This document shows, piece after piece, positions 3,625 through 53,276 of a stretch of DNA of 64,000 nucleotides; position 1 is the first letter of the stretch, and every line of letters begins with the position of its first letter. The stretch is taken from the NCBI RefSeq assembly GCF_988242995.1, contig NZ_OZ547043.1; one strand, written 5' to 3'. The notes under the pieces are model-generated. The model was not told the DNA's origin, made no database searches, and was given only the letters and a program-made list of their open reading frames with translations. The position numbers were made by a program, and so were the translations under genes.

Positions 3625-4337
3625 TTGTGCACAGAAAACCCCCAGCTAGGCTGGGGGTTCCGGAAAGCTTTCAGCTTTGAGCCAGTTATTAAAACCCCTT
3701 TTGATTTGTTAAAACACTTTGCGGTCTGGCAACTGCAAGTGTCAAACAAGAAATCAAAAGGGGGTCCCAATGGGGAACGAAAAGAGCTTAGCGCACACCC
3801 GATGGAACTGTAAATATCACATAGTTTTTGCGCCAAAATACCGAAGACAGGTGTTCTACAGAGAGAAGCGTAGAGCAATAGGCAGTATTTTGAGAAAGCT
3901 GTGTGAGTGGAAAAGCGTACGGATTCTGGAAGCTGAATGCTGTGCAGATTATATCCATATGCTTGTGGAGATCCCGCCCAAAATGAGCGTATCCGGCTTT
4001 ATGGGATATCTGAAAGGGAAAAGCAGTCTGATGCTTTACGAGCAGTTTGGTGATTTGAAATTCAAATACAGGAACAGGGAGTTCTGGTGCAGAGGGTACT
4101 ACGTCGATACAGTGGGTAAGAACACGGCGAAGATACAGGATTACATAAAGCACCAGCTTGAAGAGGATAAAATGGGAGAGCAGTTATCGATTCCCTATCC
4201 GGGCAGCCCGTTTACGGGCCGTAAGTAACGAAGTTGGATGCAAATGTCAGATCGTGTGCGCCTGTTAGGGCGCGGCTGGTAAGAGAGCCTTATAGGCGCA
4301 TTTGAAAAACCTCCGGCTATGCCGGAGGATATTTATT
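3625..4337 (+). mobile_element. IS200-family insertion sequence (IS200/IS605 family, tnpA only), copy 1
   Basis: About 713 bp identical to 16039..16751; left-end perfect palindrome cccccagctaggctggggg; single Y1 transposase ORF; 3' end hairpin cctccggctatgccggagg. Confidence 0.9.
3770..4228 (+). CDS. tnpA: IS200 transposase TnpA (HUH/Y1 type)
   Basis: MGNEKSLAHTRWNCKYHIVFAPKYRRQVFY...; classic IS200 TnpA sequence with H-x-H motif (YIHMLVEIPP); SD aagggggt upstream. Confidence 0.9.
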   Translation: MGNEKSLAHTRWNCKYHIVFAPKYRRQVFYREKRRAIGSILRKLCEWKSVRILEAECCADYIHMLVEIPPKMSVSGFMGYLKGKSSLMLYEQFGDLKFKYRNREFWCRGYYVDTVGKNTAKIQDYIKHQLEEDKMGEQLSIPYPGSPFTGRK

Positions 4338-10810: not shown

Positions 10811-10835
10811 CTACTAGGGGGGATAACAATAAAAT

Positions 10836-10855
10836 AAAGCCTCCTAGGAGGCTTT
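10836..10855. terminator. Bidirectional intrinsic terminator between convergent genes
   Basis: Perfect palindrome aaagcctcctaggaggcttt flanked by T-runs on both strands; overlaps MTase stop codon. Confidence 0.6.
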
Positions 10856-11884
10856 GATTATATTAAGCAAATGTTTTCCAATCGTTTCAGACATCTTCGG
10901 AGGGACCGCATTTCCTATTTGACGAGCCCGAGATTGCAAAGAACCAATAAATTTATAATCCAAAGGAAATGTTTGTAGACACGCTGCTTCACGAACCGAT
11001 ATTGCTCGATTTTGTGTTGGATGTCCAAAACGTCCATTTGAATAGCTAATACAACGAGTTGTTAGTCCGCTGGCTGGTTTGTCCCAACTCAAACGTCCAT
11101 ATACGTCTGTATGCCCTTTATGGTTACGATGGCATTCTAAAATCAATTCATCTGGCCAAAATTCTCGACTTCCACCTTCAGGAGTGCATTTTATTCTACG
11201 TAAATTAAGCTCTGATAAGCGTGCAGCTTCATGATCAGGAATACTATTATGCTTTTCTCCTGCTTCTATCTTCGGTAAATTAGCGATCCAGTCCTTTACT
11301 GTTGAATAGGGAGTATTTCCAACCCCATGTGTAGGAGAAGGCAATGCGACATAAAAATCCTTGGATGCAATGAGCACTAATCTTTCTCGCGTCTGTGGTA
11401 CACCGTACCACGCAGCTGGCATTACTTTATAATCTACACTATATCCCTTTGATGAAAGCATTTCTAAAAACATCATGAATGTTCCTTCATTTTTGTTAAA
11501 CTTTTGCATTCCTGGCACGTTTTCAACAAAAATAAAATCAGGCATATAATGCTCTACAAAGCGACTGAATTCCTTTAATAGATCTAATCGTGGATCATCA
11601 TTTTTCTTATTTGAGTTTTGCTTAGAGTACGGTTGACAAGGCGCACATCCTGAAAAAAGAATGTAATCATTACGATGTTTTTTTACTAACTTGTTTATGG
11701 CATTGTTGTCGATTAACCTAATGTCCGAGTTAATAAAAGCAGCCTGCGGGAAATTTGCACGAAATGAACTGGCTGCATCAACGTCGAAATCGAGGCCAAA
11801 AACAATATCCATTCCAGCTTGATGGAAACCTTGGCTGGTTCCACCACAACCGGAAAAGAAGTCAAACACTTTGATTTTTTTCAT
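10844..11884 (-). CDS. DNA (cytosine-5)-methyltransferase
   Basis: Motif I FDFFSGCGGTSQGF, motif IV GCAPCQPYS (catalytic Cys), motif VI FVENVPGM, motif VIII QTRER, motif X GNAVPP; ATG 11884 with GAGGG SD; ORF track extends to a GTG at 11908; visibly AT-rich. Confidence 0.85.
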   Translation of the reverse strand: MKKIKVFDFFSGCGGTSQGFHQAGMDIVFGLDFDVDAASSFRANFPQAAFINSDIRLIDNNAINKLVKKHRNDYILFSGCAPCQPYSKQNSNKKNDDPRLDLLKEFSRFVEHYMPDFIFVENVPGMQKFNKNEGTFMMFLEMLSSKGYSVDYKVMPAAWYGVPQTRERLVLIASKDFYVALPSPTHGVGNTPYSTVKDWIANLPKIEAGEKHNSIPDHEAARLSELNLRRIKCTPEGGSREFWPDELILECHRNHKGHTDVYGRLSWDKPASGLTTRCISYSNGRFGHPTQNRAISVREAACLQTFPLDYKFIGSLQSRARQIGNAVPPKMSETIGKHLLNIIKAS

Positions 11885-11907
11885 TTTTCCCTCTGCATCC
11901 AGAATCA

Positions 11908-13737
11908 CTACCTAATGATACCACGGTCAAGAGCCTGAGTAATTATTTTTCTTATTTTTATAAATTCAGGCAATTCATTTTTAAGTCTTGCGGTCATCAT
12001 TTGTTGGAGGCAAAAAATTTCCTCTGCATTTACTTCTTCTTTATCATACAGGTGTTGCGCTAATAATCTTATTTGATTCTTATACAGTTCTGGATCATTA
12101 GAACTCCAGGTCTGTGAATCAATTATTTCTTTTTCACTTGGCGTAATTGCCTTTTCAATGAGTAATTGTTCGGGAGTATCAAATGGTAAATACTTCACTT
12201 TATTGAATGCATACTCAAGCACTTGCCTTTTGAGTCTATTAGATTCTTGTTCATTTTTTTTGCCATTACTACCACTGGCATTGATAATTAACTCGCAACC
12301 ATAATATTTGCACATTGTATTAACTAAATCAGCATCAGCAATTTCACTAATTCTTACTGGTTTTATTTTTTTGTTTTTATCACCATCAAGTAAAAACAAA
12401 ATATCATTGCGTTCTACCACAGCGTAACTGGGAAGATGCTTGCTTAAAATGGTCTCCGAACCACCTGGTATATAACTTACACTAAATGATAAGCTTAATC
12501 TTTCATCATTTTTAATCGCTTTATCTATAATTGCTTTAGCTAATTTATCTTCTACAATTATTGTTTTCTTGTTAATATCATGCCCTAGCTCTATAAAAGC
12601 TTCATCCGGTGCTATATTTTGAACTATTTTAGCTGTTTCACTCTCTTCATCAAAAACAAATAATTTAATGGCATCTTTGGGAAGAGTGTTCACAATAACA
12701 GGAGAATGGGTTGATATTACCACTTGATGTTTTTTCTGCTCAACAATAGAGTACAGAACATCCATCATCCTTTTTTGTGCACCAGGGTGAAGTGAAACTT
12801 CTGGTTCGTCAAGAAGAATTAATGAATTAGGTTTGGCCGAATAAATATTGAGTATTAGTGAAACTATTGCAAATTCACCACTTCCAGCAAACGCTTCTGT
12901 ATAGTTCAACTTATCAGTTGAAAGTAAAGCGGTTCCTCCTCTGGTTCCAAATAACCGATGCTCAAGAAATTTAATGACTTTATATTTTTTCCCTAATATA
13001 AATGAGACGTGCTCAACTAGTTCTGGCGCCAAGGTTATATTTTTAACAATGGTTTCCGCCCCCCAGAGTCTTAAATTACTTAGCTTTTCATCAAAAGCTT
13101 TCTTTATATATTTAGATTTGCTTCTGATATAGTCTTGCTTTGTAATTAATACACCACTCTTCTTCTTTCTTAATTTAAAATCAGAGTGATACATACATCT
13201 ATCAAATGCACTTATTTCCGATCTGAAATCTAGGAAAACCAATCCCTTCTTGATTTTTTTCCATCTGGTTGCATTACTATTAGCACCCAGATCATCCGAA
13301 ATACTCTCCATGTTATCACCAACAGATGGTCGACTTGTTTCCCAATAATCGATTGTTTTCTTGGTAGCATTGATACGTGCTTGGAGTATTTCAACTAAAC
13401 GGCCATCAGCATTTTTATATCCATATATATATCTAGGTTTAAGAGAACTGCCATCAGCAAGTTTTAGGTCAGGAAACTCATCTGTTTCAGTTGTGAACCA
13501 ATAACGAGTTATATTTTTACCATGTGGGCAACCAAATAGCGCTTTGATAACAGAACTTTTATTAGTTCCATTTTTTCCTACTAAAGCCGTTATAGGGAAC
13601 TGAAAATCGATCCTTGCATTCTGCTCTATATTTTTAAAGTATGGAAAACGGATATGTTGTATGAATGGTTCAAATTCACCGTTTTTTAACGCGCACTGGA
13701 GTGTTCGAATTTTGCTCTTGTATGCGGAAGTGCTCAT
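11908..13737 (-). CDS. OLD-family-like nuclease: N-terminal ABC-type ATPase plus C-terminal Toprim-like domain (609 aa)
   Basis: Walker A LVGKNGTNKSS; signature-like AGSGEFAIVSL; Walker B/D-loop LILLDEPEVSLHP; H-loop VISTHSP; C-terminal Toprim-like E (TIIVEDKLAK) and DxD (LFLLDGDKN); stop lies 23 bp from MTase ATG; visibly AT-rich. Confidence 0.7.
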   Translation of the reverse strand: MSTSAYKSKIRTLQCALKNGEFEPFIQHIRFPYFKNIEQNARIDFQFPITALVGKNGTNKSSVIKALFGCPHGKNITRYWFTTETDEFPDLKLADGSSLKPRYIYGYKNADGRLVEILQARINATKKTIDYWETSRPSVGDNMESISDDLGANSNATRWKKIKKGLVFLDFRSEISAFDRCMYHSDFKLRKKKSGVLITKQDYIRSKSKYIKKAFDEKLSNLRLWGAETIVKNITLAPELVEHVSFILGKKYKVIKFLEHRLFGTRGGTALLSTDKLNYTEAFAGSGEFAIVSLILNIYSAKPNSLILLDEPEVSLHPGAQKRMMDVLYSIVEQKKHQVVISTHSPVIVNTLPKDAIKLFVFDEESETAKIVQNIAPDEAFIELGHDINKKTIIVEDKLAKAIIDKAIKNDERLSLSFSVSYIPGGSETILSKHLPSYAVVERNDILFLLDGDKNKKIKPVRISEIADADLVNTMCKYYGCELIINASGSNGKKNEQESNRLKRQVLEYAFNKVKYLPFDTPEQLLIEKAITPSEKEIIDSQTWSSNDPELYKNQIRLLAQHLYDKEEVNAEEIFCLQQMMTARLKNELPEFIKIRKIITQALDRGIIR

Positions 13738-13885
13738 TGTTTACTAAAGTCCATAATAGGCTATTAACAGGTTGAGGATGACATGATAACGATTTTTAAT
13801 GCAGATAAAAGAGGTTTGTTGGTTAGCACACAACAGAAAAAGTGACCTTACCGCTTGAACGAAAGGTAAGGGTAAGTAGGCTGTG

Positions 13886-14038
13886 ATGCAGCAAAAGACG
13901 ATGTTAATCGCCCTGATTGTCATCTGTATTACCGTCGTTGTGATGGCACTGGTAACAAGGAAAGACTTCTGCGAGGTACAAATCCGAACCGGTCAGACGG
14001 AGGTCGCTGTCTTCACAGCTTACGAACCTGAGGAGTGA
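13886..14038 (+). CDS. hok: Hok/Gef-family type I toxin (50 aa)
   Basis: Hand translation MQQKTMLIALIVICITVVVMALVTRKDFCEVQIRTGQTEVAVFTAYEPEE; close to K-12 HokD/RelF as I recall; GC-rich hairpin ggcgagggagaaatccctcgcc downstream. Confidence 0.8.
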   Translation: MQQKTMLIALIVICITVVVMALVTRKDFCEVQIRTGQTEVAVFTAYEPEE

Positions 14039-14503
14039 GAGACCAGGCGAGGGAGAAATCCCTCGCCACCTCTGATGAGTCAGGCATCCTCAACGCACCC
14101 GCACTTAACCAACTTTGGCGGGTATATTTTATCTGTGAATATTTTTATAAAAATAATGCCCACGCACAGCATAAAACAAAAAGTATTACAGATAAAAAAG
14201 GAACGTAATGTGCAGATTTGTTGTTTTCCATATTTACTCACCTTAATATGATTAACCCTAATAGGGTTGTTATTTCAGCGGTTTTCAAATGAGATATTAT
14301 GGTGATCTGGCAGATTTGCATAACATTAAAATTTAATTTGTTTAACCGCTTTTAATAATAAGCGTTGTTTGTATCCCAGCAATCTGTTGTTTGGTTTTTA
14401 TTCCATTAAGGTGGGGCTTTACACTGGAGCCAGTTTATTTATACTTCATACGTCAGCCTGAACAACTGGCATCTGCTGCGCTGCGCCATCGAGAGATTAA
14501 GAA

Positions 14504-15103
14504 ATGGCGCATATACAACTGGTCAAACAAACCTCTTCCGGATTACTTCTCCCGGCGACGCCGGAGAGTTGTGATTTTCTGCATCAAATCAAAATAGGCG
14601 AGTGGATACACGCAGACTTTAAGCGTGTGCGTAACTACGCATTCCACAAGCGTTTTTTCAAACTCCTGCAACTGGGATTCGATTACTGGACTCCGGTCGG
14701 TGGGGCGATCACGCCTCGCGAACGAGAACAGCTGTCTGGTTTCGTTGATTACCTGTGCGAATCAGTTGGTCGGGAACACACGCCAGCCCTGAGTGATGCC
14801 GCAGAGCAATATCTGAATACAGTTGCGACACGCAGAACCCGGGATACGGCATTGCTAAAGTCGTTTGAGGCTTTTCGCGAGTGGGTAACCATTCAGGCTG
14901 GATTTTACACCGAACATTTTTATCCGGACGGTAGCCGCGGGCGTCGGGCAAAATCTATCGCTTTTGCGAATATGGACGAAACCGAGTTTCAGCAGGTTTA
15001 TAAATCTGTTCTGAATGTGCTGTGGAACTGGATTCTGTTCCGTAAATTTTCCTCTCCGGAACAAGTCGAAAATGTGGCCGCGCAGCTGCTGGAGTTTGCG
15101 TAA
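14504..15103 (+). CDS. Phage protein, DUF1367-like (nin-region)
   Basis: 199-aa ORF MAHIQLVKQTSSGLLLPATPESCDFLHQIKIGEW...; family call from memory and position before the YbcO-like gene. Confidence 0.5.
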   Translation: MAHIQLVKQTSSGLLLPATPESCDFLHQIKIGEWIHADFKRVRNYAFHKRFFKLLQLGFDYWTPVGGAITPREREQLSGFVDYLCESVGREHTPALSDAAEQYLNTVATRRTRDTALLKSFEAFREWVTIQAGFYTEHFYPDGSRGRRAKSIAFANMDETEFQQVYKSVLNVLWNWILFRKFSSPEQVENVAAQLLEFA

Positions 15104-15932: not shown

Positions 15933-16038
15933 TTTTTTACGCATAAACTGCTTCAATTCCGGTATGCTTCGCAAAGCTGTATCGCGAGGCGAACCAAGCG
16001 CATGAACTTTACCAGAACCCGCCATTGAGCGGGTTTTG

Positions 16039-16751
16039 TTGTGCACAGAAAACCCCCAGCTAGGCTGGGGGTTCCGGAAAGCTTTCAGCTTTGAGCCAGT
16101 TATTAAAACCCCTTTTGATTTGTTAAAACACTTTGCGGTCTGGCAACTGCAAGTGTCAAACAAGAAATCAAAAGGGGGTCCCAATGGGGAACGAAAAGAG
16201 CTTAGCGCACACCCGATGGAACTGTAAATATCACATAGTTTTTGCGCCAAAATACCGAAGACAGGTGTTCTACAGAGAGAAGCGTAGAGCAATAGGCAGT
16301 ATTTTGAGAAAGCTGTGTGAGTGGAAAAGCGTACGGATTCTGGAAGCTGAATGCTGTGCAGATTATATCCATATGCTTGTGGAGATCCCGCCCAAAATGA
16401 GCGTATCCGGCTTTATGGGATATCTGAAAGGGAAAAGCAGTCTGATGCTTTACGAGCAGTTTGGTGATTTGAAATTCAAATACAGGAACAGGGAGTTCTG
16501 GTGCAGAGGGTACTACGTCGATACAGTGGGTAAGAACACGGCGAAGATACAGGATTACATAAAGCACCAGCTTGAAGAGGATAAAATGGGAGAGCAGTTA
16601 TCGATTCCCTATCCGGGCAGCCCGTTTACGGGCCGTAAGTAACGAAGTTGGATGCAAATGTCAGATCGTGTGCGCCTGTTAGGGCGCGGCTGGTAAGAGA
16701 GCCTTATAGGCGCATTTGAAAAACCTCCGGCTATGCCGGAGGATATTTATT
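16039..16751 (+). mobile_element. IS200-family insertion sequence, copy 2 (identical to copy 1)
   Basis: Identical to 3625..4337 (offset 12414 bp), same orientation; inserted between Q-like gene and lysis region. Confidence 0.9.
16184..16642 (+). CDS. tnpA: IS200 transposase TnpA
   Basis: Identical to the 3770..4228 product. Confidence 0.9.
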   Translation: MGNEKSLAHTRWNCKYHIVFAPKYRRQVFYREKRRAIGSILRKLCEWKSVRILEAECCADYIHMLVEIPPKMSVSGFMGYLKGKSSLMLYEQFGDLKFKYRNREFWCRGYYVDTVGKNTAKIQDYIKHQLEEDKMGEQLSIPYPGSPFTGRK

Positions 16752-52910: not shown

Positions 52911-53138
52911 TGAATAAATCCTTTAGTTATTTTATTTGCCTTTTCATCCCCATTTTGGGGAGTGAAAGCATCCTAAAGGAGAAGTTCAGTTAGCCGATAA
53001 ATATCATTTGTTACGCCTTAAGTAAAACCTTAATCAAATAATTCTTCTGAAATGATAATAAGTCTGGTGAATGTATTGAAGATAATACATACAAAATAAA
53101 AATTATACTTTTAATTTGCTATACGTTATTCTGCGCGG

Positions 53139-53248
53139 GTTATATGCCTTTATTGTCACAGATTTTATTTTCTGTTGGGCCATTGCGTTGCTACTGATTT
53201 TCCAACAAATAATGAGACAAGCCCGAACAGTCGTTCGGGCTTTTTTTT
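53139..53248 (+). ncRNA. micC: MicC small regulatory RNA
   Basis: GTTATATGCCTTTATTGTCACAGATTTTATTTTCTGTTGGGCCATTG... ending in hairpin gcccgaacagtcgttcgggc plus T-run; matches K-12 micC from memory; between ompN and ydbK. Confidence 0.8.
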
Positions 53249-53276
53249 AGAATTGGATAATCCTTATCCAGTGCAT

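Follow-up and report, generated by a model that had tools for sequence, protein, structure and literature searches.

The hok gene at positions 13886 to 14038 of the analyzed DNA (the window, 64,000 nucleotides of contig NZ_OZ547043.1 from assembly GCF_988242995.1) is probably the truncated remnant of a hokD-type locus, left as an orphan and likely silent toxin gene. The toxin reading frame is complete and belongs to the Hok/Gef family, but every defining regulatory feature of a hok/sok/mok locus that was tested fails in the window. The first-pass annotation had described a Hok toxin head-to-head with a defense-like operon, in a Rac prophage that has no hok in K-12, and had interpreted the whole as a toxin-antitoxin locus. 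The arrangement and the comparison with K-12 hold up; the toxin-antitoxin locus does not. The features on which this is based are the following.

10814-13737, minus strand: inserted cargo module with a methyltransferase (MTase) and an ATPase gene, GC content 34-39%, junctions from BLAST against phage Rac 442/2
10835-10856: bidirectional terminator at the left junction of the module
10844-11884, minus strand: DNA cytosine methyltransferase gene (PADLOC MTase_II, 1e-96)
11908-13737, minus strand: gene for an AAA_15/AAA_21 'ATP-dependent nuclease'-type ATPase of 609 aa (PADLOC HEC-04, 1.5e-34)
13738-13856, no strand assigned: intergenic sequence brought by the module, 35% GC, found in 31 of 5,426 genomes
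13857-13885, plus strand: what is left of the ancestral hok translation-initiation region; homology to intact hokD loci begins here
13864-13869, minus strand: degenerate remnant of the sok promoter -35 box, TTACCT (TTGCCT or TTGACC in intact loci)
13876-13886, plus strand: 5' arm (GUAGGCUGUGA) of a predicted 11-bp long-range helix, in the MFE and centroid folds
13886-14038, plus strand: hok open reading frame of the hokD type, ATG start, 50 aa, TGA stop at 14036-14038
14013-14023, plus strand: 3' arm (UCACAGCUUAC) of the predicted 11-bp helix, in the MFE and centroid folds
14046-14067, plus strand: 9-bp GC-rich hairpin of the hok 3' UTR, GGCGAGGGA-GAAA-TCCCTCGCC, kept in all aligned hokD loci
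14088-14100, plus strand: fbi (fold-back inhibition) element CCTCAACGCACCC, invariant in the alignments
14107-14130, plus strand: degenerate hok terminator, AACCAACTTTGGCGGGTATATTTT (in intact loci ACCCGCTTCGGCGGGT, followed by a T-run)

The 50-aa product (MQQKTMLIALIVICITVVVMALVTRKDFCEVQIRTGQTEVAVFTAYEPEE) agrees exactly with the translation given in the first-pass annotation. Its family membership is established by the Pfam model HOK_GEF (PF01848; E=1e-21, 76.7 bits), in which residues 6-46 align to model positions 2-42 of 42. The conserved Hok residues C14, T16, C29, E30 and E39 are all present, as is the N-terminal hydrophobic helix. More than 80% of Hok peptides share the positions numbered C16, T18, L30, C31, E32 and E41 in the published logo. 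The leucine preceding the conserved cysteine is a phenylalanine in the window and an isoleucine in the allele of an O103 strain. In Hok R1, the replacement of this leucine by alanine left toxicity in place, and overexpression was toxic for HokD and for 42 of 45 diverse Hok coding sequences (bioRxiv 10.1101/2025.08.07.668861).

Assignment below the family level is less sharp. NCBIfam Hok models match at E=2.6e-11, but the protein remains under the HokD equivalog and the other NCBIfam curated cut-offs (NF007279: 43.2 bits versus 73; NF007290, HokA: 42.1 versus 89), and a PADLOC run on Hok returned no matching model. At the DNA level, the coding sequence and 3' UTR are ~91% identical to hokD, and the protein differs from K-12 HokD by six amino-acid substitutions and the loss of Lys2. 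RefSeq already labels the gene product as a “Hok/Gef family protein” (WP_032158962.1), using a 51-aa form that starts at an in-frame GTG at 13883.

The host element is a Rac-like prophage adjoining ttcA, with intR, xisR, ralR, recT, recE, kilR, ydaT and ydaV on one side of hok, and DUF1367, DUF1364, DUF1133/Q and lysis genes on the other. Several complete E. coli chromosomes, among them that of ATCC 8739, match the 761 bp around the hok frame at 100% identity. Sequence of the hokD type is widespread: ~4,500 of 5,426 complete E. coli genomes contain it, in as many as nine places per genome, and so do 103 phage records. An intact hok/sok/mok locus is carried at exactly the same backbone position by phage Rac of E. 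coli 442/2 (MN652886; Rac 442/2 below). In K-12, hokD was found beside relBE in Qin, and Rac is without hok, as had been claimed. The accompanying description of the window locus as strain-specific prophage cargo, however, is the wrong way round. The intact hok/sok/mok locus belongs to the Rac/lambdoid backbone, as its position in Rac 442/2 shows, and the strain-specific cargo is the MTase-ATPase module, which is substituted for the 5' part of the hok locus. A genome-wide tally of intact and truncated loci from BLAST (8,657 leader places versus 9,164 CDS places) was not accepted as a clean estimate, since plasmids and other hok loci are matched by the leader query too.

The extent of the substitution was determined by comparison with Rac 442/2. 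The left block of homology stops at 10813, just past the DUF977 gene, and the right block restarts at 13862. The segment between them, 10814-13861, comprises 3,048 bp (the two genes for MTase and ATPase plus 124 intergenic bp) and stands where Rac 442/2 has 1,575 bp, made up of five small ORFs and the hok promoter, tac, mok start and sok. In BLAST, homology to every intact locus starts at 13857-13862, ~25 nt 5' of the hok ATG. Judged by eye, similarity to intact loci may reach ~13845 with indels.

The ATPase of the module also matches the ATPase-Toprim, AriA and PtuA-like models of PADLOC. Its gene is divergent from hok and shares an AT-rich intergenic region with it, just as the first-pass annotation stated; this region measures 148 bp and has a GC content of 37.8%, versus 47.7% for the whole window. 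The part brought by the module (13738-13856) occupies the place expected for the hok promoter, tac, ucb, mok start and sok. The promoter of the ATPase operon, and any hok promoter, should be located within it. The 148-bp region and the 3-kb module occur in an identical set of 31 of the 5,426 complete E. coli genomes, always with this hok junction and with at least 99.2% identity. The exact 51-aa protein is present in 973 blocks of the assembly collection, and is adjacent to the ATPase in 10 of the 10 places listed (28 contigs read). In the phage and plasmid collections, the ATPase has distant homologues only, the contexts of which are uninformative regarding a hok neighborhood. An ancestral hok variant with a different leader was also considered; it was rejected, as the 148 bp upstream of hok are never seen without the module and have none of the features of a leader.

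Intact hokD-type loci have a conserved upstream leader of ~190 nt, which contains the promoter, the 5' tac element (GGGTGCTTGAGG), the mok ATG (57-58 nt upstream of hok) and the Sok-complementary region. The window was aligned with K-12 hokD and four intact lambdoid prophage loci, and a second time with the same-backbone Rac 442/2. In each of the five intact loci, the Rfam model RF01794 matches the full length of this leader, with scores of 104-120 bits (111 bits for Rac 442/2). In the window it has no match, neither at E<=1 over the surrounding 1.2 kb (13400-14600) nor at the gathering score over the full 64 kb, and no other RNA family was found at the hok locus in the same searches. K-12 hokD has no RF01794 match either. 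Matches resembling isrK (E=0.05-0.18, below the gathering score) occur downstream of hokD elsewhere; they were judged to be due to chance and are absent from the window.

The search for a mok leader frame was negative. Stop codons (TAA at 13873, TAG at 13877 and TGA at 13884) close the three frames 2-13 nt upstream of the ATG, and there is no start further upstream; since all frames are closed within 13 nt, no mok frame is left. A search for a Sok promoter was equally unsuccessful, as the alignments with intact loci show replaced sequence at the place of the sok gene and its -10 box, with only the degenerate -35 remnant still present. We take the layout of the R1 sok promoter to apply to the position of this remnant. 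From the alignments, the position was also set by homology to the promoter layout of the hokW sok gene (PMC8621323).

Sigma-70 consensus scans of both strands, strict and relaxed, placed no hok, antisense or ATPase promoter. The strict scan gave two sites, versus 2.0 expected from shuffled sequence, and the best promoter-like sites in 13738-13856 reach 9/12 without the -11 A. One weak promoter-like site upstream of hok (TTGAGG-17-TTTAAT) is located at 13772-13800. The same scanner finds both the hok promoter, with TAGAAT as its -10 box, and the 3' terminator in Rac 442/2, and neither in the window, which is a weak negative as these are consensus scans.

Regulation in trans by a Sok RNA from elsewhere in the genome finds no target either. 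The predicted Sok of Rac 442/2 pairs perfectly with its own target, but its pairing energy with the window (-36.9 kcal/mol) is no better than with shuffled targets (-38.9 +/- 3.5 kcal/mol), and Sok from intact paralogues therefore cannot control the hok gene of the window.

Substitutions are denser in the short initiation region that is left, where 6 of 29 nucleotides deviate from the intact consensus, versus 16 of 220 elsewhere in the locus (Fisher p=0.029). The Shine-Dalgarno sequence is degraded from GGAG to GGGT, leaving TAAGGG at 13867-13872; the ancestral hok ATG has become GTG (13883) and the second codon has turned from AAG into ATG. Substitutions in the same region have weakened the sok -35 box from TTGCCT to TTACCT, and have given rise to the stop codons that close the three frames.

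Two of these changes affect the predicted RNA fold. Through the C to T change at 13877 and the A to G change at 13883, two stretches that were imperfectly complementary can now form a perfect 11-bp helix (13876-13886:14013-14023), which is predicted to bury the GTG/ATG start. The duplex energy of this predicted helix is -30.4 kcal/mol, versus -11.5 kcal/mol for the same regions of an intact locus, and for short transcripts it is predicted whichever 5' end is chosen. Predicted occlusion of the start is only modestly stronger than in intact loci, with a mean unpaired probability of the start region of ~0.2 versus 0.27-0.36, and it weakens in a long transcript, where this probability rises to 0.41. 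The 3' arm includes the Tyr46 codon TAC (14021-14023), which is part of a TACG motif (14021-14024). In K-12 hokD, this TACG motif is edited by TadA, changing Tyr46 to Cys (PMC5630033).

Downstream of the coding sequence, the GC-rich hairpin reported in the first-pass annotation is real. The fbi element follows it; in the fold of one intact locus (L005), fbi pairs with the 5' tac. In the window, this partner is deleted, and the predicted RNA fold contains no equivalent of the tac-fbi long-range pairing. The terminator stem has changed from CCCGC to CCAAC, its T-run is interrupted, and the terminator scan, which finds the site in Rac 442/2, does not find one here.

The truncated lineage is represented by three alleles (the window, EC11 and O103 RM8385), which have the junction and the initiation-region changes in common. 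The hok frame is intact in all three variants and in many assemblies; with only ~11 substitutions, an intact frame is expected under neutrality too. Compared with canonical HokD, dN/dS is ~0.5, versus 0.08 between intact loci of similar synonymous divergence, but those ~11 changes are too few to tell relaxed from purifying selection. The window and the O103 allele differ by 6.5% in hok, beside a difference of 0.7% in the adjacent module, from which it follows that the body of hok has been exchanged by homologous recombination with other prophage copies. Such an exchange is typical of the backbone and not of a module component. RefSeq gives the name hokD to the O103 allele at this junction; the window allele is only a 'Hok/Gef family protein'.

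A simple series of events would produce this locus. An ancestral hokD-type hok/sok/mok locus would have been situated in the Rac/lambdoid backbone, between the replication genes and DUF1367-DUF1364-Q. The 3-kb low-GC module, on the opposite strand, would have replaced the neighboring small genes and the 5' part of the hok locus, thereby removing the hok promoter, tac, ucb, the mok start codon, the Sok target and sok with its -10 box. The 3' two-thirds are left over, consisting of the hok coding sequence, ~25 nt of the initiation region, the 3' UTR hairpin, an fbi without partner and a decayed terminator. The surviving hok gene would then be silent in the lysogen, transcriptionally as well as translationally, and would be carried along with the module, as an orphan of the K-12 hokD kind that arose by an independent truncation.

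The assumption of silence builds on saturation mutagenesis of R1 hok/Sok. In that system, Hok is lost when the hok promoter or the mok start is mutated, or when mok contains a premature stop upstream of hok, and a chromosomal hok without Sok was recovered only with loss-of-function mutations (PMC9841398). As Hok requires its promoter and mok translation, and as an expressible hok without Sok is lethal, the hok gene of the window is most likely silent. The window combines all of the lesions that abolish Hok in R1, and a silenced orphan toxin gene, with the order of events given above, is therefore considered the most likely explanation. The changes in the start region would fit silencing as well, including the altered Shine-Dalgarno sequence and start codon, the stops in three frames and the helix perfected by two substitutions. 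Against it, K-12 hokD is leaderless, yet transcribed and edited, so truncated copies need not be silent at the RNA level. The weak upstream promoter-like sites, the UAAGG remnant of the Shine-Dalgarno sequence, the intact frame and the modest gain in occlusion are further counterpoints to silencing.

Other roles for the gene were weighed against this explanation. The first-pass annotation had proposed that a toxin-antitoxin pair stabilizes the island or acts in abortive infection, for which an antisense RNA from the shared intergenic region would have to repress hok in the manner of a hok/sok-like type I pair. Such a pair is very improbable here. Its toxin would be in place, the frame being intact and close to that of HokD, a coding sequence toxic on overexpression (bioRxiv 10.1101/2025.08.07.668861), and R1 hok/sok is cited in PMC8621323 as lowering T4 plating. 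Weak minus-strand promoter-like matches (8/12) are also present in the 5' coding region of hok, at 13955-13928 and 13944-13916, but promoter-like sites are as numerous as in shuffled sequence. No Sok or leader homology is detectable by a search in which the positive controls score over 100 bits, and the hok promoter, tac, mok start, Sok target and sok are all missing, with no Sok from intact paralogues able to pair with the window. With no unstable antitoxin, neither post-segregational killing nor abortive infection by Sok decay can work canonically. Generally, hok genes show no enrichment near defense systems (12% versus 9.4% expected) and are enriched in prophages (bioRxiv 10.1101/2025.08.07.668861). 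A coupling of hok to the ATPase/MTase operon, in which the 5' UTR or promoter of the operon controls hok by interference or antisense and Hok serves as a suicide effector or addiction element, can be given just as little credence. The hok junction is the same in 31 of 31 genomes and in every place listed for the assemblies, and the shared control region is merely 148 bp long; a single ancestral insertion, however, accounts for this strict linkage, and with a near-identical module in all carriers there are no independent events by which coupling could be tested. The exchange of hok by recombination beside a near-constant module is a passive backbone pattern, and in one assembly (L017) the ATPase and MTase are disrupted with hok intact. 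The nearest full-length homologue of the ATPase in the plasmid set is from Clostridium, a genus in which Hok is not known to occur.

A role as a lysis helper coupled to prophage induction is unlikely, although several observations are in line with it. In that case, hok would be transcribed only in the early-rightward transcript after induction and could do without a promoter or antitoxin of its own, and Hok would harm the inner membrane, advancing lysis and phage release. The gene lies between the replication genes and the DUF1367/DUF1364/Q-like genes and on the same strand, so that read-through of the early operon would include it; its start is predicted to be less occluded in the long transcript, its frame is intact in all variants, and the decayed terminator would favor read-through to the genes downstream. 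HokW is made after mitomycin C treatment, ~1 h before endolysin, and its deletion halves phage release (PMC8621323), but that effect was measured with a complete hokW-sokW and not with a truncated locus. Read-through would, moreover, have to pass the bidirectional terminator (10835-10856) and then ~2.9 kb in which the MTase and ATPase genes are oriented convergently. The Shine-Dalgarno sequence and start codon are weakened, Hok translation fails without mok translation in R1 (PMC9841398), and several regions of the prophage look degraded or bear IS elements, which makes productive induction doubtful. It is decidedly improbable, finally, that the orphan hok is no fossil at all, but a Sok-independent membrane effector rewired to the module or to the induction program, with the hok locus as a right-hand recombination anchor. 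If rewired, hok would be turned off by the start-occluding helix, and turned on by transcription across the shared 148-bp region or by read-through of the early operon; as an anchor, it would mark a hot spot for defense genes and morons in lambdoid prophages. The cargo found at the hok spot includes relBE, AbiH, a PtuA/OLD-like ATPase with MTase, an Sll1717 ATPase and paa. On the left side of hokD loci, whether intact or truncated, an MFS/LysR block occurs in addition to relBE, paa and an AbiH operon.

The window locus shows that toxin-only remnants, which lost their regulatory half through cargo exchange, may make up a sizeable share of prophage hok genes. Such remnants cannot use the canonical Sok-decay mechanism, and they bear on toxin-antitoxin censuses and on claims of clustering with defense genes. 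The replication-to-Q junction of Rac/lambdoid prophages may be a slot that swaps defense-like cargo beside a conserved hok landmark. Beyond these points, the locus is a case of ordinary prophage mosaicism; the gene had an annotation before, and hokD/relF is a textbook precedent for the phenomenon. No description of the hok-module junction of the window, or of its silencing-like substitutions, was found in the literature.

The closest intact relatives are Rac 442/2 and the hokW-sokW locus of Sakai Sp5, which have the same backbone order (ydaU-ydaV-DUF1627-DUF977...hok...DUF1367-DUF1364-Q). The coding sequence and 3' UTR of the Rac 442/2 hok gene are 90.5% identical to those of the window, with the VVV codons in common. 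Both loci possess a promoter, tac, mok, Sok target and sok gene of their own; the window has none of these 5' elements. The hokW-sokW locus is a demonstrated toxin-antitoxin pair, dependent on RNase III and Hfq, which aids phage release (PMC8621323). In comparison, hok/sok of plasmid R1 (parB) encodes a toxin of the same family (Pfam HOK_GEF) and has the same 3' fbi logic as the window, and its leader architecture is equivalent to that of the window's intact relatives in the Rfam alignment. It brings about post-segregational killing, for which it relies on an unstable Sok, on translation coupled to mok and on processing of the mRNA at the 3' end (PMC9841398). This mechanism cannot operate in the window, which is devoid of Sok, mok and tac.

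Erosion of a hok gene from its 5' side is also seen in strain GPEC389, where a P-loop ATPase of the Sll1717 family abuts hok from the left in the same slot of the same Rac-like backbone. There, the deletion enters the hok coding sequence, leaving an annotated pseudogene without N-terminus, whereas the coding sequence of the window is complete. As a third state of this slot, GPEC389 supports the idea that hok is eroded recurrently by cargo exchange.

The best parallel is provided by K-12 hokD (relF) in Qin. It encodes the same type of toxin, has the same 3' UTR with hairpin, fbi and terminator region, and occupies an equivalent slot, upstream of the late-regulator genes of its prophage. Like the window locus, it is without the RF01794 leader, sok or an ATG-initiated mok, and it lies directly 3' of inserted cargo, in this case relBE. 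It has been described as inactive, a statement that PMC5630033 cites from Pedersen and Gerdes (1999), and the same work reports that the leaderless hokD is transcribed and edited (PMC5630033). K-12 hokD keeps GGAG and ATG, in contrast to GGGT and GTG-ATG in the window. Its partner relBE is encoded upstream on the same strand, so that hokD can be co-transcribed with it; the module of the window is divergent, and hok is thus left with no co-directional promoter upstream. As both the truncation point and the upstream partner differ, the two truncations are independent events.

The operon adjoining hok, the 5'-truncated hokD-type toxin ORF, is encoded on the minus strand (window 10844-13737). It comprises a type II-like m5C methyltransferase gene and a gene for a 609-aa AAA_15/AAA_21 ATPase. 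The methyltransferase is DruM-like and matches the PADLOC model MTase_II (1e-96), and the best PADLOC matches of the ATPase are HEC-04 (1.5e-34), ATPase-Toprim I-B, AriA and PtuA. No full-length match to any known system was found in PADLOC. Within the plasmid set, the nearest full-length relative of the ATPase is from Clostridium estertheticum, with 30% identity. A perfect palindromic hairpin, AAAGCCTCCTAGGAGGCTTT, with a terminator score on both strands, is present at window 10835-10856. Its position coincides exactly with the left junction of the MTase-ATPase module, and part of it falls within the 3' end of the methyltransferase gene. In one other assembly carrying both module and hok (L017; GCA_000190835.1, 1-2855), the ATPase and methyltransferase are broken into several ORFs next to an intact hok; either module decay or a sequencing artefact may account for this.

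An element of ~0.7 kb occurs twice in the window (3627-4322 and about 16035-16751), with 99.9% identity across 717 bp. The second copy is located about 2 kb 3' of hok, directly past a Q-like gene. Both copies are absent from the corresponding places in the E. coli ATCC 8739 chromosome. Each contains a full-length match to Rfam STnc490, presumably an IS200-associated RNA:

3637-3760, STnc490 in the first copy, 144.6 bits
16051-16174, STnc490 in the second copy, 144.6 bits

The MicC sRNA gene is also found in the window (53136-53256, 124 bits), at a site presumed to lie outside the prophage, in the chromosome proper.

Downstream of hok, the spacer that extends to the DUF1367 gene (window 14131-14503) has a GC content of 34%, and other lambdoid prophages (the intact hokD-type locus L003) conserve it to about 93%. 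An Rfam search of this spacer gave zero matches. It holds three terminator-like hairpins and two promoter-like sites:

14253, 14347 and 14415, terminator-like hairpins
14225-14252 and 14418-14445, promoter-like sites

Weak matches to Rfam isrK, the Hfq-binding RNA of Gifsy-1, fall in the hokD 3' UTR/terminator region of three compared loci, scoring 25-27 bits where the gathering threshold is 50, and Rfam gave no isrK match in the window:

L002, 3174-3255
L005, 4188-4269
L006, 4192-4273

The Tyr46 codon of hok is held in a TACG motif (window 14021-14024), the context of A-to-I editing by TadA. Such editing changes Tyr46 to Cys in K-12 hokC, hokD and hokE (PMC5630033). In the predicted fold of the window RNA, this TAC would be paired with the start region and not exposed in a loop.

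In the four intact hokD-type loci (L003-L006), the mok ATG lies in the hok reading frame, and translation from this start would yield a 70-aa Hok with an N-terminal extension. A 1-nt difference shifts mok out of the hok frame in phage Rac of E. coli 442/2, the arrangement also seen in R1.
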